DNA of 64,000 nt, taken from the NCBI RefSeq assembly GCF_053078305.1, contig NZ_CP166879.1; one strand, written 5' to 3'. The translations under genes were made by a program, and so were the position numbers. A model generated the notes under the pieces. That model made no database searches, had not been told where the DNA came from, and saw only the letters and a list, made by a program, of their open reading frames with translations. How positions within the stretch are numbered: the stretch's first letter is position 1; every line of letters begins with the position of its first letter. Positions 13,497 to 22,173 of the stretch are shown one piece after another.

Positions 13497-15896
13497 ATGA
13501 AGCTAACCGATGCGGATAATGCCGCCGATGGCATTTTTTTCCCCGCCCTTGAGCAAAATATGATGGGTGCGGTGTTAATTAACGAAAATGATGAAGTGAT
13601 GTTTTTCAACCCCGCCGCAGAGAAGCTCTGGGGGTACAAACGTGAAGAAGTCATTGGCAATAACATTGATATGCTAATTCCGCGGGATTTGCGTCCTGCG
13701 CATCCTGAATACATTCGTCACAACCGTGAAGGCGGTAAAGCGCGCGTCGAGGGGATGAGTCGGGAGCTGCAGCTGGAGAAAAAAGACGGCAGTAAAATCT
13801 GGACCCGTTTTGCGCTATCGAAAGTGAGCGCCGAGGGGAAAGTTTATTACCTGGCGCTGGTACGGGATGCCAGCGTAGAAATGGCGCAAAAAGAACAGAC
13901 CCGACAATTGATTATTGCCGTTGACCATCTCGACCGACCGGTGATTGTCCTCGATCCGGAACGCCATATTGTGCAGTGCAATCGCGCATTTACCGAAATG
14001 TTTGGTTACTGCATTAGCGAAGCCAGCGGTATGCAGCCCGATACACTCCTGAACATTCCTGAATTCCCTGCCGATAACCGCATTCGTTTACAACAGTTGC
14101 TATGGAAAACCGCCCGCGATCAGGACGAATTTCTGCTGTTGACGCGCACCGGTGAAAAAATCTGGATTAAAGCTTCTATCAGCCCGGTTTATGACGTGCT
14201 CGCGCATCTGCAGAACCTGGTAATGACCTTCTCGGATATCACCGAAGAACGGCAAATCCGCCAGCTTGAAGGCAATATTCTCGCCGCCATGTGCAGCAGC
14301 CCGCCATTTCATGAAATGGGGGAAATCATTTGTCGTAATATCGAATCTGTTCTCAACGAATCGCATGTTTCGCTGTTCGCACTGCGCAACGGGATGCCGA
14401 TACACTGGGCGTCATCTTCGCACGGTGCAGAAGTTCAAAATGCGCAAAGCTGGTCAGCGACCATTCGTCAGCGTGATGGCGCGCCTGCGGGGATCCTGCA
14501 AATTAAAACCTCGTCAGGAGCAGAAACCAGCGCCTTTATCGAACGCGTGGCAGATATCAGCCAGCATATGGCCGCGCTGGCGCTGGAACAGGAAAAAAGC
14601 CGTCAGCATATTGAACAACTCATCCAATTTGATCCGATGACCGGTCTGCCAAATCGCAATAACCTGCACAATTACCTCGATGACCTGGTCGACAAAGCCG
14701 TCTCTCCGGTGGTGTATCTCATCGGTGTTGACCATATTCAGGATGTGATTGATAGCCTTGGCTATGCGTGGGCCGATCAGGCATTGCTGGAAGTGGTCAA
14801 TCGCTTTCGTGAAAAACTCAAACCGGATCAGTATCTCTGTCGTATCGAAGGTACGCAGTTTGTCCTCGTGAGCCTGGAAAACGACGTCAGTAACATTACC
14901 CAAATCGCCGATGAGCTACGGAATGTGGTCAGCAAGCCGATAATGATTGACGATAAACCCTTCCCGCTTACCTTGAGTATTGGCATCAGCTACGACGTGG
15001 GTAAAAACCGCGATTACCTGCTCTCCACTGCTCACAATGCAATGGATTATATTCGCAAGAATGGCGGTAACGGCTGGCAGTTCTTCAGCCCGGCGATGAA
15101 CGAAATGGTAAAAGAGCGTTTGGTTTTAGGCGCAGCGCTGAAAGAAGCGATTAGCAATAACCAACTGAAACTGGTTTACCAGCCGCAAATCTTCGCAGAA
15201 ACGGGTGAACTCTACGGCATCGAAGCCCTTGCTCGCTGGCACGATCCCCAGCATGGTCATGTGCCCCCTTCACGGTTTATTCCTCTCGCAGAAGAGATTG
15301 GTGAAATCGAAAATATTGGGCGCTGGGTCATCGCGGAAGCTTGCCGTCAGTTAGCAGAATGGCGTAGCCAGAATATTCATATCCCGGCGTTATCCGTGAA
15401 CTTGTCGGCGCTGCACTTTCGCAGTAATCAACTGCCTAATCAGGTGTCTGATGCAATGCAAGCCTGGGGTATTGACGGCCACCAGCTGACGGTAGAAATC
15501 ACGGAAAGCATGATGATGGAACACGATACCGAAATCTTTAAGCGCATTCAGATCCTGCGTGATATGGGCGTGGGTTTATCGGTAGATGATTTTGGCACGG
15601 GCTTTTCAGGATTATCCCGCTTAGTCAGTCTTCCGGTAACGGAAATCAAAATTGACAAAAGTTTTGTCGATCATTGTCTGACGGAAAAACGCATCCTTGC
15701 CTTACTTGAAGCCATTACCAGCATTGGGCAAAGCCTCAATTTAACCGTCGTGGCGGAAGGCGTCGAAACCAAAGAGCAATTTGAGATGCTACGCAAGATC
15801 CACTGTCGCGTTATTCAGGGATATTTCTTTTCCCGCCCCCTACCCGCCGAAGAAATTCCAGGCTGGATGAGCAGCGTGTTACCGCTGAAAATCTGA
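13497..15896 (+). CDS. dosP: Heme-regulated c-di-GMP phosphodiesterase (PAS-PAS-GGDEF-EAL)
   Basis: Starts MKLTDADNAADGIFF with ATG at 13497 just after the dosC stop; EAL motif GIEALARW. Confidence 0.92.
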   Translation: MKLTDADNAADGIFFPALEQNMMGAVLINENDEVMFFNPAAEKLWGYKREEVIGNNIDMLIPRDLRPAHPEYIRHNREGGKARVEGMSRELQLEKKDGSKIWTRFALSKVSAEGKVYYLALVRDASVEMAQKEQTRQLIIAVDHLDRPVIVLDPERHIVQCNRAFTEMFGYCISEASGMQPDTLLNIPEFPADNRIRLQQLLWKTARDQDEFLLLTRTGEKIWIKASISPVYDVLAHLQNLVMTFSDITEERQIRQLEGNILAAMCSSPPFHEMGEIICRNIESVLNESHVSLFALRNGMPIHWASSSHGAEVQNAQSWSATIRQRDGAPAGILQIKTSSGAETSAFIERVADISQHMAALALEQEKSRQHIEQLIQFDPMTGLPNRNNLHNYLDDLVDKAVSPVVYLIGVDHIQDVIDSLGYAWADQALLEVVNRFREKLKPDQYLCRIEGTQFVLVSLENDVSNITQIADELRNVVSKPIMIDDKPFPLTLSIGISYDVGKNRDYLLSTAHNAMDYIRKNGGNGWQFFSPAMNEMVKERLVLGAALKEAISNNQLKLVYQPQIFAETGELYGIEALARWHDPQHGHVPPSRFIPLAEEIGEIENIGRWVIAEACRQLAEWRSQNIHIPALSVNLSALHFRSNQLPNQVSDAMQAWGIDGHQLTVEITESMMMEHDTEIFKRIQILRDMGVGLSVDDFGTGFSGLSRLVSLPVTEIKIDKSFVDHCLTEKRILALLEAITSIGQSLNLTVVAEGVETKEQFEMLRKIHCRVIQGYFFSRPLPAEEIPGWMSSVLPLKI

Positions 15897-15909
15897 CAAA
15901 TTCCTCTCG

Positions 15910-15927
15910 CCCGCACTCGCGGGTTTT
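15910..15927 (+). terminator. Rho-independent terminator after dosP
   Basis: cccgc actc gcggg followed by TTTT. Confidence 0.55.
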
Positions 15928-16093
15928 CATTTAACGTGACACTGTCACTTAAATACTGTGATTTCAGCTACGATTCCGGGAGATTCCTTCCTTAACTTCC
16001 CCTCTTGCACCAAAACTGCACTACGCTGCACAAATGTTGATCAAAAGTTAAAAAATATAACTTTAAGCCAGCATTCTGGCGCTTATCCCGGCA

Positions 16094-16110
16094 TGGCATG
16101 AGATCTGCAT
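16094..16110 (+). promoter_or_regulatory. Candidate sigma54 (-24/-12) promoter for the ddp operon
   Basis: TGGCAT-N5-CTGCAT with GG and GC elements 10 nt apart, about 45 bp upstream of ddpX; the ddp operon is known to be nitrogen-regulated. Confidence 0.45.
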
Positions 16111-16153
16111 AAGCGGAAAGCGCAGCAATTTTTGTCTTATACAGGAACCATTT

Positions 16154-16735
16154 ATGTCGGATACCACCGAACTGGTTGATTTAGCCGTAATCTTCCCTGA
16201 TCTGGAGATCGAATTGAAATACGCCTGCGCTGATAACATCACAGGTAAAGCTATTTACCAGCAAGCGCGTTGTCTGTTACACAAGGATGCGATTACCGCG
16301 CTGGCGAAAAGTATCAGTATCGCCCAGCTATCAGGCTTACAACTGGTGATTTACGATGCGTATCGCCCACAACAAGCACAGGCGATGTTGTGGCAAGCCT
16401 GCCCAGACCCGCAATATGTTGTTGATGTGACGGTCGGTTCTAATCACAGCCGTGGCACGGCGATCGACCTGACGCTTCGTGATGAGCACGGGAACATCCT
16501 GGATATGGGCGCAGGGTTCGATGAAATGCACGAACGTTCCCATGCTTACCATCCTTCCGTCCCGCCCGCCGCTCAGCGCAATCGGCTGTTGCTGAATGCG
16601 ATTATGACTGGTGGCGGTTTTGTCGGTATCTCCAGCGAATGGTGGCACTTCGAATTACCCCAGGCAGCGAGTTACCCTCTGCTCGCTGATCAATTCACCT
16701 GTTTTATATCCCCTGGCACACAGCACGTCAGTTAA
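16154..16735 (+). CDS. ddpX: D-alanyl-D-alanine dipeptidase (VanX homologue)
   Basis: 193 aa; first gene of the ddpXABCDF cluster. Confidence 0.92.
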   Translation: MSDTTELVDLAVIFPDLEIELKYACADNITGKAIYQQARCLLHKDAITALAKSISIAQLSGLQLVIYDAYRPQQAQAMLWQACPDPQYVVDVTVGSNHSRGTAIDLTLRDEHGNILDMGAGFDEMHERSHAYHPSVPPAAQRNRLLLNAIMTGGGFVGISSEWWHFELPQAASYPLLADQFTCFISPGTQHVS

Positions 16736-16748
16736 TCAGGAAACTGTC

Positions 16749-18299
16749 ATGAAGAGATCGATATCGTTTCGTCCCACATTGCTCGCGCTCGTCCTTGCCA
16801 CAACTTTCCCGGTTGCGCACGCCGCCGTACCGAAAGATATGCTGGTGATTGGTAAGGCCGCCGATCCACAAACCCTCGACCCGGCGGTAACAATAGATAA
16901 TAACGACTGGACGGTGACCTACCCGTCTTATCAGCGACTGGTTCAGTACATAACGGACGGTGATAAAGGCTCAACCGACGTTGAAGGCGATCTGGCAAGT
17001 AGCTGGAAAGCGTCTGACGATCAAAAAGAGTGGACGTTCACCCTGAAGGACAATGCTAAATTTGCCGATGGCACACCTGTCACTGCCGAAGCAGTCAAAC
17101 TCTCTTTTGAGCGGTTACTAAAAATCGGCCAGGGGCCAGCAGAAGCATTTCCCAAAGATTTAAAGATTGATGCTCCCGACGAACATACGGTGAAGTTTAC
17201 CCTTAGCCAACCATTCGCACCGTTCCTCTACACGCTGGCGAATGACGGTGCATCCATTATCAATCCGGCGGTCTTAAAGGAACATGCAGCGGATGATGCT
17301 CGCGGCTTCCTCGCGCAAAATACCGCCGGTTCCGGACCGTTTATGCTGAAAAGCTGGCAAAAAGGTCAGCAATTAGTTCTGGTGCCAAATCCGCATTACC
17401 CCGGCAATAAACCGAACTTTAAGCGAGTATCGGTAAAAATTATCGGTGAAAGTGCCTCCCGTCGCCTGCAGCTCTCCCGTGGCGACATTGACATTGCCGA
17501 TGCGCTGCCGGTGGATCAACTCAACGCCCTGAAGCAGGAAAATAAAGTCAATGTGGCAGAGTATCCGTCACTGCGCGTCACCTATCTGTATCTGAATAAC
17601 AGCAAAGCGCCACTTAATCAGGCGGAGCTGCGGCGGGCCATTTCCTGGTCTACCGATTATCAGGGCATGGTTAACGGCATTCTGAGTGGTAACGGAAAAC
17701 AAATGCGCGGCCCGATTCCGGAAGGCATGTGGGGCTACGATGCGACGGCAATGCAATACAACCATGACGAAACGAAAGCCAAAGCCGAATGGGATAAAGT
17801 GACGAGCAAACCCACCAGCCTGACGTTTCTCTACTCCGATAACGATCCGAACTGGGAGCCTATTGCTCTGGCGACACAATCCAGTCTCAACAAGCTGGGC
17901 ATCAATGTGAAGCTGGAAAAGCTGGCGAACGCCACCATGCGCGACAGAGTGGGTAAAGGTGATTACGACATTGCGATTGGCAACTGGAGTCCGGATTTTG
18001 CCGACCCGTATATGTTTATGAATTACTGGTTTGAGTCAGACAAAAAAGGTCTGCCGGGTAACCGCTCGTTCTATGAAAACAGTGAGGTCGATAAGTTACT
18101 GCGCAATGCGCTCGCGACCACCGACCAGACGCAGCGTACCCGGAACTACCAGCAGGCACAGAAAATCGTCATTGATGACGCTGCTTATGTGTACCTGTTC
18201 CAGAAAAACTACCAACTGGCGATGAACAAAGAGGTGAAAGGCTTTGTGTTCAATCCCATGCTGGAACAGGTCTTCAATATCAATACCATGAGTAAATAA
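16749..18299 (+). CDS. ddpA: Dipeptide ABC transporter periplasmic substrate-binding protein
   Basis: Signal peptide MKRSISFRPTLLALVLATTFPVAHAA; the ORF-track start at 16611 is an upstream GTG extension overlapping ddpX; start coordinate uncertain by 1 nt. Confidence 0.9.
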   Translation: MKRSISFRPTLLALVLATTFPVAHAAVPKDMLVIGKAADPQTLDPAVTIDNNDWTVTYPSYQRLVQYITDGDKGSTDVEGDLASSWKASDDQKEWTFTLKDNAKFADGTPVTAEAVKLSFERLLKIGQGPAEAFPKDLKIDAPDEHTVKFTLSQPFAPFLYTLANDGASIINPAVLKEHAADDARGFLAQNTAGSGPFMLKSWQKGQQLVLVPNPHYPGNKPNFKRVSVKIIGESASRRLQLSRGDIDIADALPVDQLNALKQENKVNVAEYPSLRVTYLYLNNSKAPLNQAELRRAISWSTDYQGMVNGILSGNGKQMRGPIPEGMWGYDATAMQYNHDETKAKAEWDKVTSKPTSLTFLYSDNDPNWEPIALATQSSLNKLGINVKLEKLANATMRDRVGKGDYDIAIGNWSPDFADPYMFMNYWFESDKKGLPGNRSFYENSEVDKLLRNALATTDQTQRTRNYQQAQKIVIDDAAYVYLFQKNYQLAMNKEVKGFVFNPMLEQVFNINTMSK

Positions 18300-18300
18300 C

Positions 18301-19323
18301 GTGACCTTCTGGAGTATTTTACGCCAACGCTGCTGGGGGCTGGTGCTCGTGGTGGCGGGCGTCTGCGTGATTACGTTTATTATCTCGCATCTGATCCCCG
18401 GCGATCCGGCGCGGTTACTGGCGGGTGACCGCGCCAGCGATGCTATCGTGGAAAATATTCGCCAGCAACTGGGACTGGACCAGCCACTGTATGTACAGTT
18501 TTACCGCTACGTCAGCGACCTGTTTCATGGTGACCTGGGAACATCCATTCGTACCGGGCGTCCGGTGCTGGAAGAGTTGCGTATATTTTTCCCGGCGACG
18601 CTGGAGCTGGCTTTTTGTGCCCTGCTGCTGGCACTCTTGATTGGCATCCCGCTGGGCATACTCTCTGCAGTCTGGCGAAATCGCTGGCTGGATCATCTGG
18701 TGCGAATAATGGCCATTACCGGAATCTCCACACCTGCGTTCTGGCTTGGACTGGGCGTCATTGTGCTGTTTTATGGTCATCTGCAAATTCTTCCCGGCGG
18801 CGGAAGGCTTGATGACTGGCTGGATCCACCAACGCACGTTACCGGCTTTTATCTGCTCGATGCGCTGCTTGAAGGCAACGGTGAAGTCTTCTTCAATGCG
18901 TTGCAACATCTCATCTTACCGGCATTAACGCTGGCGTTCGTTCACCTGGGAATTGTCGCTCGCCAGATCCGCTCAGCGATGCTGGAACAATTGAGTGAAG
19001 ACTACATTCGTACCGCCCGGGCCAGCGGCTTGCCCGGCTGGTATATCGTTTTATGTTATGCGCTACCCAATGCGTTGATCCCATCGATTACCGTATTGGG
19101 TCTGGCGCTGGGCGATTTGTTGTATGGCGCAGTGCTCACCGAAACCGTTTTTGCCTGGCCCGGAATGGGGGCATGGGTAGTGACATCGATACAGGCGCTC
19201 GACTTCCCTGCGGTGATGGGATTTGCCGTCGTGGTTTCGTTTGCTTATGTGCTGGTGAACCTGGTAGTGGATTTGCTCTATTTGTGGATTGATCCGCGTA
19301 TCGGACGTGGAGGTGATGAATGA
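18301..19323 (+). CDS. ddpB: Dipeptide ABC transporter permease
   Basis: 340 aa polytopic permease; GTG start directly after the ddpA stop. Confidence 0.9.
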   Translation: MTFWSILRQRCWGLVLVVAGVCVITFIISHLIPGDPARLLAGDRASDAIVENIRQQLGLDQPLYVQFYRYVSDLFHGDLGTSIRTGRPVLEELRIFFPATLELAFCALLLALLIGIPLGILSAVWRNRWLDHLVRIMAITGISTPAFWLGLGVIVLFYGHLQILPGGGRLDDWLDPPTHVTGFYLLDALLEGNGEVFFNALQHLILPALTLAFVHLGIVARQIRSAMLEQLSEDYIRTARASGLPGWYIVLCYALPNALIPSITVLGLALGDLLYGAVLTETVFAWPGMGAWVVTSIQALDFPAVMGFAVVVSFAYVLVNLVVDLLYLWIDPRIGRGGDE

Positions 19324-20216
19324 TGCTAAGCGAGGAAACGTCCGCCGTACGCCCAGCAAAACAAACGCGATTTAACGGTGCAAAACTGGTATGGATGCTG
19401 AAAGGCAGTCCGCTCACCGTGACCGGCGCAGTCATCATTGTATTAATGCTATTGATGATGATTTTTTCACCGTGGCTGGCGACGCATGATCCCAACGCCA
19501 TTGATTTAACCGCCCGCCTTTTGCCGCCTTCTGCGGCGCACTGGTTTGGCACCGATGAAGTGGGACGCGATCTGTTCAGCCGCGTACTGGTCGGCAGTCA
19601 GCAATCAATTCTCGCCGGATTAGTCGTGGTTGCCATTGCGGGTATGATTGGTTCGCTACTCGGATGTCTATCCGGTGTGCTTGGCGGACGCGCAGACGCC
19701 ATCATCATGCGCATCATGGACATTATGCTGTCGATTCCTTCGTTGGTACTGACAATGGCACTGGCTGCCGCTCTCGGGCCGAGTTTATTTAACGCCATGC
19801 TGGCGATTGCTATTGTGCGAATTCCCTTTTATGTGCGCCTGGCGCGGGGGCAAGCATTAGTTGTACGCCAGTATACCTATGTTCAGGCGGCGAAAACCTT
19901 TGGTGCGTCGCGTTGGCATCTGATCAGCTGGCATATTTTACGTAACTCCCTGCCGCCGCTGATCGTGCAGGCATCGCTGGATATCGGTAGCGCGATTTTA
20001 ATGGCCGCCACGTTGGGATTTATTGGCCTGGGTGCTCAACAACCGAGTGCTGAATGGGGCGCGATGGTAGCGAATGGTCGCAACTATGTACTCGATCAGT
20101 GGTGGTATTGCGCATTTCCGGGGGTAGCGATTTTGCTTACCTCCGTCGGTTTTAATCTCTTTGGTGATGGTATTCGCGATCTGCTTGACCCGAAAGCAGG
20201 AGGAAAGCAGTCATGA
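19320..20216 (+). CDS. ddpC: Dipeptide ABC transporter permease
   Basis: 298 aa permease; 4-bp overlap with ddpB. Confidence 0.9.
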   Translation: MMLSEETSAVRPAKQTRFNGAKLVWMLKGSPLTVTGAVIIVLMLLMMIFSPWLATHDPNAIDLTARLLPPSAAHWFGTDEVGRDLFSRVLVGSQQSILAGLVVVAIAGMIGSLLGCLSGVLGGRADAIIMRIMDIMLSIPSLVLTMALAAALGPSLFNAMLAIAIVRIPFYVRLARGQALVVRQYTYVQAAKTFGASRWHLISWHILRNSLPPLIVQASLDIGSAILMAATLGFIGLGAQQPSAEWGAMVANGRNYVLDQWWYCAFPGVAILLTSVGFNLFGDGIRDLLDPKAGGKQS

Positions 20217-21199
20217 CCCAACCCGTTCTGGACATTCAACAGCTGCATTTGAGTTTCCCCGGTTTTAACGGTGATGTTCACGCGCTCAACAATGTGTCCT
20301 TGCAGATTAACCGCGGTGAAATTGTCGGTCTGGTGGGAGAATCCGGCTCAGGTAAATCAGTCACCGCAATGCTGATTATGCGTCTGCTACCGACGGGCAG
20401 TTATTGCGTACATCGGGGGCAGATTTCCCTGCTGGGAGAAGATGTTCTTAACGCGCGGGAAAAACAGCTTCGTCAGTGGCGCGGCGCACGAGTGGCGATG
20501 ATCTTTCAGGAACCGATGACCGCCCTCAATCCGACACGTCGAATAGGTCTTCAGATGATGGACGTGATCCGCCATCATCAACCAATAAGTCGTCGGGAAG
20601 CCAGAGCTAAAGCGATTGCCCTGCTGGAAGAGATGCAAATCCCGGATGCCGTGGAAGTTATGTCGCGCTATCCGTTTGAGCTTTCAGGTGGTATGCGCCA
20701 GCGGGTAATGATTGCGCTGGCATTCTCCTGCGAGCCGCAATTGATTATTGCCGACGAACCGACTACGGCGCTGGACGTCACGGTACAGTTGCAGGTACTG
20801 CGTTTGCTTAAACATAAAGCCCGCGCCAGTGGAACTGCGGTACTGTTCATCAGCCATGATATGGCCGTGGTGTCGCAACTGTGCGATAGCGTTTACGTGA
20901 TGTATGCCGGAAGCGTAATTGAAAGCGGCGTGACGGCAGACGTTATCCATCATCCCCGGCATCCGTATACCATTGGTTTGCTGCAATGCGCACCAGAACA
21001 TGGAATACCGCGCCAGCCATTACCCGCCATTCCAGGGACGGTACCAAACCTCACCCATTTGCCTGACGGCTGCGCTTTTCGCGATCGTTGCTATGCGGCA
21101 GGTGCACAGTGTGAAAACGTCCCGGCGCTGACAGCGTGTGGTGACAACAACCAGCGCTGCGCCTGTTGGTATCCGCAGCAGGAGGTCATAAGTGTCTGA
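20213..21199 (+). CDS. ddpD: Dipeptide ABC transporter ATP-binding protein
   Basis: Walker A GESGSGKS, signature LSGGMRQR; 4-bp overlap with ddpC. Confidence 0.92.
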   Translation: MTQPVLDIQQLHLSFPGFNGDVHALNNVSLQINRGEIVGLVGESGSGKSVTAMLIMRLLPTGSYCVHRGQISLLGEDVLNAREKQLRQWRGARVAMIFQEPMTALNPTRRIGLQMMDVIRHHQPISRREARAKAIALLEEMQIPDAVEVMSRYPFELSGGMRQRVMIALAFSCEPQLIIADEPTTALDVTVQLQVLRLLKHKARASGTAVLFISHDMAVVSQLCDSVYVMYAGSVIESGVTADVIHHPRHPYTIGLLQCAPEHGIPRQPLPAIPGTVPNLTHLPDGCAFRDRCYAAGAQCENVPALTACGDNNQRCACWYPQQEVISV

Positions 21200-22118
21200 C
21201 ACGTTATTAACGTTACGCGACGTCCATATCAATTTCCCGGCCCGTAAAAACTGGCTTGGTAAAACTACGGAACATGTTCATGCCATTAATGGTATTGATT
21301 TACAGATCCGCCGTGGTGAAACCTTAGGGATCGTCGGCGAGTCAGGCTGCGGCAAAAGCACCCTCGCACAGCTTTTAATGGGTATGCTGCAACCGAGCCA
21401 CGGGCAGTACATCCGTTCTGGCTCACAACGCATTATGCAGATGGTGTTTCAGGACCCGCTCTCTTCGCTTAATCCGCGCTTACCGGTGTGGCGCATCATC
21501 ACAGAACCGCTCTGGATAGCTAAGCATAGTAGTGAACAACAGCGGCGAGCGTTGGCAGAGGAGCTGGCTGTGCAGGTGGGTATTCGTCCGGAGTATCTCG
21601 ACCGCCTGCCTCATGCGTTCTCCGGCGGGCAGCGGCAACGCATCGCCATTGCCAGAGCACTCTCTTCGCAGCCTGACGTGATTGTGCTTGATGAGCCAAC
21701 CTCTGCGCTGGATATCTCCGTGCAGGCGCAGATCCTCAATTTACTGGTAACGCTACAGGAAAATCACGGGCTGACTTATGTGCTGATTTCACACAATGTC
21801 TCGGTGATTCGTCATATGAGCGATCGGGTAGCGGTGATGTATCTCGGGCAGATTGTGGAATTAGGGGAAGCGCAACAGGTGCTAACGGCTCCGGCACATC
21901 CATACACCCGATTATTGCTGGATTCCCTCCCCGCCATTGATAAACCGCTGGAGGAAGAATGGGCATTACGAAAAACGGAACTGCCAGGAAACCGCACGTT
22001 GCCACAGGGCTGTTTTTTCCGCGAACGTTGCCCCCTTGCAACCAGCGGATGCGAAGTCCGGCAATCATTAACGACGCGGGCTGACGGACGTGAGATCCGT
22101 TGCTGGCGGGCGCTGTAG
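21192..22118 (+). CDS. ddpF: Dipeptide ABC transporter ATP-binding protein
   Basis: Walker A GESGCGKST, signature FSGGQRQR; 8-bp overlap with ddpD. Confidence 0.92.
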   Translation: MSDTLLTLRDVHINFPARKNWLGKTTEHVHAINGIDLQIRRGETLGIVGESGCGKSTLAQLLMGMLQPSHGQYIRSGSQRIMQMVFQDPLSSLNPRLPVWRIITEPLWIAKHSSEQQRRALAEELAVQVGIRPEYLDRLPHAFSGGQRQRIAIARALSSQPDVIVLDEPTSALDISVQAQILNLLVTLQENHGLTYVLISHNVSVIRHMSDRVAVMYLGQIVELGEAQQVLTAPAHPYTRLLLDSLPAIDKPLEEEWALRKTELPGNRTLPQGCFFRERCPLATSGCEVRQSLTTRADGREIRCWRAL

Positions 22119-22173
22119 AGATGCTAACAACGCATCAGGCATTCATGCGCCTGACGCGTCATCCGGCAATGCT

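Follow-up and report, generated by a model that had tools for sequence, protein, structure and literature searches.

A sigma-54 promoter ahead of ddpX in Escherichia coli and its probable activation by NtrC under nitrogen limitation

What drives transcription of the ddpXABCDF operon, and which nutritional signal switches it on? The question is raised by an E. coli chromosomal locus with the gene order dosP-ddpXABCDF-osmC, osmC lying on the opposite strand. The locus is part of a 64-kb stretch of DNA analysed here as a whole (the window, to which all positions refer). A 1.2-kb query around the site of interest was matched in 5398 of 5426 complete E. coli genomes, with the annotation dosP - ddpX - ddpA, and the nearest complete genome was that of strain A16 (99.9% over 1.2 kb). 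An earlier note, made from the sequence alone, had read a -24/-12 element upstream of ddpX as a sigma-54 promoter under NtrC and nitrogen-limitation control.

The gene content gives a first indication. ddpX (16154-16735, plus strand, ATG at 16154-16156) encodes a VanX-type zinc D-Ala-D-Ala dipeptidase. The protein matches Pfam Peptidase_M15 (E = 4e-79) and NCBIfam PRK10178 (334.7 bits, above the cutoff), and the RefSeq annotation agrees. It is followed on the same strand by the genes of a D,D-dipeptide ABC importer, ddpA (16749-18299), ddpB (18301-19323), ddpC (19320-20216), ddpD (20213-21199) and ddpF (21192-22118). Pfam and NCBIfam identify DdpA as a family-5 solute-binding protein and the upstream neighbour DosP as a PAS-GGDEF-EAL protein. 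The junctions from ddpX to ddpF are tight or overlapping, which fits a single operon. Nitrogen-scavenging products are expected of the Ntr regulon, and the operon provides them as a D-Ala-D-Ala dipeptidase combined with an ABC importer of the family-5 solute-binding-protein type. D-alanine catabolism would link these products to nitrogen supply within the Ntr scavenging response.

Just past the dosP stop codon (15896), a terminator-like hairpin with a T-run is found on the plus strand (GCCCGCACTCGCGGGT followed by TTTCATTT, 15906-15924), and its stem is kept within Escherichia. This hairpin should insulate ddpX from dosCP read-through. With dosP apparently closed off in this way, ddpX would need its own promoter.

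The intergenic region also contains two palindromes. The first, GTGACA-C-TGTCAC (15936-15948), is perfect and has been retained, between variable flanks, by divergent Escherichia lineages. Although CRP half-site-like, it has a 5-nt spacer; a TGTGA half-site comes next, at 15959-15963. The second, GCCAG-CATT-CTGGC (16067-16080), lies directly upstream of the -24 element described below and is confined to Escherichia, with one natural G-to-A variant at 16079.

The candidate promoter is located at 16093-16110 on the plus strand (aTGGCATGAGATCTGCAT), as delimited by the motif, a weight matrix and the literature; its sequence context is cccggcaTGGCATgagatCTGCATaagcgg. The motif proper, TGGCATGAGATCTGCAT (16094-16110), comprises a -24 element TGGCAT (16094-16099, GG at 16095-96) and a -12 element CTGCAT (16105-16110, GC at 16107-08), separated by the N5 spacer gagat. 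Exactly 10 nt lie between the GG and GC doublets, the spacing typical of sigma-54 elements of the TGGCAC-N5-TTGCW kind. There are 43 nt between the motif and the ddpX ATG, or 44 bp from T16110 to A16154. On re-reading, the coordinates of the earlier note and its description as TGGCAT-N5-CTGCAT with GG-N10-GC spacing were right, and its distance of about 45 bp to the ddpX start corresponds to these 44 bp.

How surprising is such a motif? The exact 17-mer occurs once in the window (0 expected). For the degenerate form TGGCAY-N5-YTGCW, the single match compares with 0.37 expected per 64 kb, and 32% of shuffles contain at least one. A weight matrix was built from the 41 other intergenic sigma-54 motifs of a ChIP-seq study (Bonocora 2015), leaving out ddpX. 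The ddpX site scored 15.98 bits, which is both the maximum of the window and the median of the 41 training sites. Sites of this score are expected 0.53 times per 64 kb on both strands. By itself, the motif is thus only marginally above chance, with about 0.4-0.5 sites of equal quality expected per 64 kb, and this is what a functionless chance match has in its favour. Nonetheless, we estimate that only about 0.03 such matches are expected on the coding strand in the last 100 bp or so ahead of an operon's first gene, given the approximately 60 genes of the window. The motif becomes convincing through its top matrix score, its position and orientation, the TGCAC cluster upstream and its conservation in other genera. 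Position and strand suit a ddpX promoter, a unique cluster of half-sites lies alongside, and a chance match has already been refuted by sigma-54 ChIP-seq, by gel shift and by the conservation of the site in 68 of 78 other-genus loci. The probability of this explanation is negligible.

Other sigma-54-like sequences were observed in the window. The second-best matrix match, CTGGCGCTACCGTTGCA (43422-43438, plus strand, 14.5 bits), differs by one substitution from CTGGCACTACCGTTGCA, the intragenic narY site IS19 of the ChIP-seq study (Bonocora 2015). A further match, TTGGCACGGGCTTTTCA (15592-15608, plus strand, 13.1 bits), is located in the 3' end of dosP, on the same strand as the ddpX promoter and about 500 bp upstream of it; it is absent from the high-stringency ChIP-seq list. 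The yncD sigma-54 site of the same study was not found in the 64-kb window (Bonocora 2015).

The feature is already published as ddpXp, a sigma-54/NtrC-dependent promoter, and is an ordinary known promoter. In K-12, a sigma-54 ChIP-seq site was reported upstream of ddpX (OS16, ATGGCATGAGATCTGCA) with a fold-above-threshold score of 10 (Bonocora 2015). Its predicted transcription start lies 34 nt before the gene, and its EcoCyc status is 'predicted' (Bonocora 2015). Earlier, the promoter ggcaTGGCATGAGATCTGCATAagcg had been predicted at -60 to -43 of ddpX (Zhao 2010). The window strain is not K-12, but the sequences agree: the 17-mer ATGGCATGAGATCTGCA corresponds to 16093-16109 and the 26-mer ggcaTGGCATGAGATCTGCATAagcg to 16090-16115. 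Likewise, dosP lies upstream and ddpA downstream in both, the ATG is equally far from the promoter, and no substantive difference from the K-12 promoter was found.

Evidence for the activator comes from two studies. In nitrogen-starved cells, an NtrC ChIP-seq peak was detected at ddpXABCDF (1561101-1561181, equivalent to 16073-16153 of the window; Brown 2014). This 80-bp bin covers the core promoter and not the TGCAC block described below, an offset that is within ChIP resolution. A gSELEX peak was also reported, and on a ddpX probe, NtrC binary, RpoN-holoenzyme binary and ternary complexes were seen in gel shifts (Shimada 2021). The primers of this probe map to 15822-16230. Upon nitrogen depletion, RT-qPCR showed a 104.5-fold increase in ddpX mRNA and a 2.2-fold increase in that of ddpF (Shimada 2021). 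The authors conclude that ddpX expression is dependent on RpoN and NtrC (Shimada 2021). An internal RpoD 'constitutive promoter' has been listed between ddpA and ddpB, at about position 18300 (Shimada 2014). Such a promoter might account for the 2.2-fold change of ddpF compared to the 104-fold change of ddpX.

Taken together, we put the probability that ddpXABCDF is transcribed from a sigma-54 (RpoN) promoter at 16093-16110, activated by NtrC under nitrogen limitation, at roughly 93%. The proposal of the earlier note is supported by the published ChIP-seq, gel-shift and ddpX induction results. It is further backed here by a typical matrix score, the half-site cluster, the lack of a sigma-70 promoter in the intergenic scans, the terminator-like hairpin after dosP and the conservation across genera.

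Other inputs to the operon have been described. In stationary-phase LB cultures of strain EDL933, ddpXA are among the 100 most RpoS-dependent genes, with wild-type/rpoS ratios of 39 and 31, and one paper found lower ddpX expression in a cya mutant. Nitrogen control is therefore probably not the sole input, and a second one, direct or indirect, is likely. These observations could also mean that the sigma-54 site is non-productive or occlusive and that the operon is driven from elsewhere in the intergenic region by a sigma-S or sigma-70 promoter. Indeed, many sigma-54 sites may never yield transcription (Bonocora 2015), and repressive RpoN sites have been described (Shimada 2021). Nevertheless, no -35/-10 pair in the intergenic region passed a promoter scan for sigma-70 or sigma-S, and a lenient scan returned weak candidates only (e.g., AATACT at 15952), none of them convincing. 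The 104.5-fold rise of ddpX is specific to nitrogen depletion and was attributed by the authors to RpoN and NtrC (Shimada 2021). The -24/-12 bases and the upstream activator block are conserved across genera, as for an activatable promoter. Moreover, RpoS may act indirectly: the same RpoS-dependent list includes astCADBE, which is annotated there with RpoS, RpoN, ArgR and NtrC as regulators. A separate promoter is thus considered quite improbable as the main driver.

Under the sigma-54 reading, an activator sequence is expected about 70-150 bp from the promoter, and the block at 16006-16043, which is alignable across genera, provides it. Three TGCAC pentamers on the same strand start within 30 bp, at 16006, 16017 and 16027 (spacings of 11 and 10 bp). 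This triple cluster is the sole one in the 64-kb window (0.035 expected), and the core promoter lies 67-89 bp downstream of it. The consensus NtrC palindrome is TGCACCAnnnTGGTGCA, with TGCAC(C/T/A)A as the half-site. Two putative activator sites can be delimited on the plus strand. Site A (TGCACCAAAACTGCACT, 16006-16022) has its centre near -106 relative to the predicted start; its left half, TGCACCA, is a perfect NtrC half-site, and the second TGCAC begins at 16017. It is kept in Escherichia, Citrobacter, Enterobacter and Mixta. Site B (TGCACAAATGTTGATCA, 16027-16043), centred at about -85, departs from TGCACCAnnnTGGTGCA at 4 positions, a degenerate NtrC site that lies 21 bp, or two helical turns, from site A. 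Within it, GCTGCACA..TGTTGA is invariant across 9 aligned sequences, and the equivalent zone in Serratia reads TGCCCAA(A/T)TGTTGTGCA, with 3 mismatches to the NtrC palindrome. The site A region also contains CTTGCACCAAAACTGCA (16004-16020, plus strand), to which the sigma-54 matrix gives 12.7 bits, a possible reason for the two or three RpoN-holoenzyme bands seen on the ddpX probe (Shimada 2021).

It may be asked whether NtrC is the protein that binds this block. The canonical 17-bp palindrome TGCACCAnnnTGGTGCA is absent upstream of ddpX at up to 3 mismatches, and its match count over the window equals chance. The best NtrC 17-mer upstream of E. coli ddpX, with 4 mismatches, is no better than those of random 257-bp pieces of the window. 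This lack of a full palindrome would suit a working sigma-54 promoter whose block at 16006-16043 is bound by another enhancer-binding protein, or on which NtrC acts indirectly. The same explanation could draw on the offset of the NtrC ChIP bin from the block, and on the sequence GCTGCACAAATGTTGAT..GTTAA, whose conservation seems stricter than is necessary for a degenerate NtrC site. On the other hand, cells starved of nitrogen show an NtrC ChIP-seq peak at the locus, and the purified protein both shifts the probe and enters a ternary complex with the RpoN holoenzyme. TGCACCA, TGCACTA and TGCACAA are good NtrC half-sites, and the orthologous zones of Raoultella, Pantoea and Serratia match the NtrC palindrome with 2-3 mismatches. 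An activator other than NtrC, or an indirect role of NtrC, is accordingly held to be highly improbable.

The NtrC-activated sigma-54 promoter would work as follows. Sigma-54 polymerase would bind the -24 GG and -12 GC as a closed complex that is unable to start alone. Under nitrogen limitation, phosphorylated NtrC would occupy 16006-16043 at the two degenerate sites at about -106 and -85, on the same helix face, by presumed base contacts within the block. NtrC oligomers would then contact the polymerase by looping over the AT-rich spacer (16044-16066), and ATP hydrolysis by NtrC would open the promoter. The spacer contains an invariant GTTAA (16047-16051) and is a candidate bend or IHF region. 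No match to the IHF consensus WATCAANNNNTTR with at most 1 mismatch was found in the intergenic region, so any involvement of IHF is a guess. Transcription is predicted to begin near G16120 on the plus strand, 12 nt past the C of the GC element. Applying the rule of Bonocora 2015 (motif centre + 19) puts this position 34 nt ahead of ddpX, in agreement with their Table 1. Among the papers accessible to us, none reported an experimentally mapped ddpX transcription start. The predicted 34-nt leader (16120-16153) carries a Shine-Dalgarno sequence AGGA (16143-16146, plus strand), 7 nt before the ddpX ATG. It has no family match: an Rfam scan of 15800-16300 (E up to 1) detected no riboswitch or sRNA. 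The products, a D-Ala-D-Ala importer and DdpX, would let the cell scavenge nitrogen (and carbon) from cell-wall dipeptide by freeing its D-alanine.

The ddpX promoter resembles other NtrC-activated sigma-54 promoters. Those of astC (CTGGCACGAACCCTGCA) and argT (ATGGCATAAGACCTGCA) also have a C at -15, and they share the CTGCA form of the -12 element with ddpX. Together with glnAp2, they have in common with ddpX the -24/-12 architecture, downstream genes for nitrogen scavenging, and activator sites about 80-110 bp upstream on one helical face. glnAp2 possesses two strong palindromic NtrC sites. In contrast, ddpX has matches of half-site quality only, in the form of three direct TGCAC repeats. 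With weak NtrC sites and a C at -15, high levels of phosphorylated NtrC are predicted to be necessary for its activation.

Within Escherichia, the promoter is well conserved wherever it occurs. The 60-bp promoter core is present in 4270 of 5426 E. coli genomes, identical in 3205 of them, and missing from 1156. The core promoter is also identical in 6/6 other Escherichia sequences (four E. coli strains and the loci L005 and L006). The SNPs of three variant strains and of two divergent Escherichia lineages spare TGGCAT-N5-CTGCAT and the TGCAC repeats throughout; one Escherichia substitution affects the non-conserved base immediately 5' of TGG. The distal intergenic part is far more variable within Escherichia.

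Where the promoter is missing, the whole unit is missing. The enhancer, promoter and ddpXABCDF (15976-22128, plus strand) are present or absent as one 6.15-kb block. Strain Z135-6, for instance, has about 75 bp between dosP and osmC in place of 15976-22128. Because the region is absent as a whole in about 1150 genomes, the six genes appear to have been gained or lost together with their promoter and upstream block, as one module. The unit is absent from about 21% of complete E. coli genomes, which have about 75 bp of unrelated sequence instead (locus L004, 3376-3450). The left edge of the module lies 30 bp upstream of the first TGCAC.

Is the promoter a peculiarity of Escherichia? When only the 300 bp before ddpX were scanned in other genera, sites were found almost solely in Escherichia. 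The sites were missed owing to the gene order: in most other genera, a gene of about 285 aa stands directly before ddpX. An Escherichia-specific promoter is ruled out by a homologous control region about 1 kb upstream of ddpX, ahead of this gene, which belongs to the RpiR family. The full scan covered one genome per species, that is, 80 loci with a ddpX homologue (78 non-Escherichia), over 1.5 kb upstream of the homologue, with a threshold of 12.5 bits for plus-strand sites and the opposite strand as control. A sigma-54 site of at least 12.5 bits precedes the ddpX unit in 68 of the 78 non-Escherichia loci, compared to 10 of 78 on the opposite strand, although the loci are phylogenetically non-independent. 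The best plus-strand scores at the non-Escherichia loci have a median of 16.1 bits, and the next long ORF begins a median of 58 bp downstream of the site. Among 34 distinct site sequences, TGGCA and TGC are essentially invariant (one G-to-T change, at the first G) and the spacer is free.

An alignment of nine genera revealed two conserved islands, TGCACCAAAA.TG.ACTACGCTGCACAAATGTTGAT....GTTAA in the upstream block and TGGCA.......TGC in the promoter, joined by a stretch that is conserved neither in sequence nor in length. The motif CTGCACA-N4-TTGAT, taken from the E. coli upstream block, is found about 1 kb upstream of ddpX in 29 loci. The distances separating CTGCACA from the -24 GG fall into classes of 68-70, 78-81 and 88-93 bp (loci L005-L043). 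Steps of about one helical turn between these classes suggest a helical-phase constraint, albeit from few independent events. The matches in the Pantoea/Erwinia loci L047, L050 and L054 appear to be different elements. Instead of the E. coli type of block, the upstream zones of Raoultella, Pantoea and Serratia contain near-consensus NtrC palindromes, e.g., TGCACCTTCTTTGTGCA (2 mismatches). Overall, a match to the NtrC palindrome with at most 3 mismatches is present in 22 of 68 upstream zones and in 3 of 68 control segments, counts to which the same phylogenetic non-independence applies. Judged from the alignments, this pattern is that of a functional activator-dependent promoter, and the comparison shows apparent purifying selection on the promoter and upstream block across Enterobacterales.

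The arrangement in the other genera sheds light on the origin of the E. coli locus. In Citrobacter, Enterobacter, Serratia, Pantoea, Raoultella and others, the gene of about 285 aa lies between the sigma-54 promoter and ddpX. Its product belongs to the RpiR family and is SapR-like, with an NCBIfam score below the cutoff. The upstream block and the -24/-12 elements of this pair of an RpiR-family gene and a ddpX homologue are homologous to those of E. coli, and in both cases a VanX-type dipeptidase is driven. However, in the other genera, ddpABCDF do not follow ddpX, whereas E. coli has the ABC importer and lacks the regulator gene. The distance from block to promoter also differs, with 68 bp in E. 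coli and about 80 bp in Citrobacter and Enterobacter. Furthermore, TTGTTA-N6-TAACA palindromes directly follow the -12 element and recur upstream of the RpiR-family gene (L008, 563-620; L032, 578-634). They are present at equivalent positions in most non-Escherichia loci and probably serve as the operator of the RpiR-family regulator. Both the palindromes and the gene are absent from E. coli.

These differences lend themselves to an evolutionary reading, to which, with all its parts taken jointly, we would give even odds. The E. coli ddpX promoter would be the retained control region of an older unit made of a sigma-54 promoter, an RpiR-family gene and ddpX. The Escherichia lineage would have lost the regulator gene together with the presumed TTGTTA-N6-TAACA operators, and the distance between block and promoter would have shrunk by about one helical turn (from about 80 to 68 bp). 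The ABC importer would have joined downstream, giving rise to the strain-variable 6.15-kb module at 15976-22128. Nitrogen control would thereby have survived the loss of a second, probably substrate-specific, layer of regulation.

For E. coli specialists, nothing is added regarding the promoter itself, and the call made in the earlier note shows that a true sigma-54 promoter can be recognised from sequence alone. The new parts are comparative. Sigma-54 control of a VanX-type dipeptidase appears to be widely conserved in Enterobacterales. An RpiR-family gene intervenes in other genera and is absent in E. coli, one control region seems to have been re-used with differing downstream genes, and the whole ddp module of E. 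coli varies between strains as a block. These findings may be of interest for studies on the rewiring of the Ntr regulon and on the recycling of cell-wall D-Ala-D-Ala.
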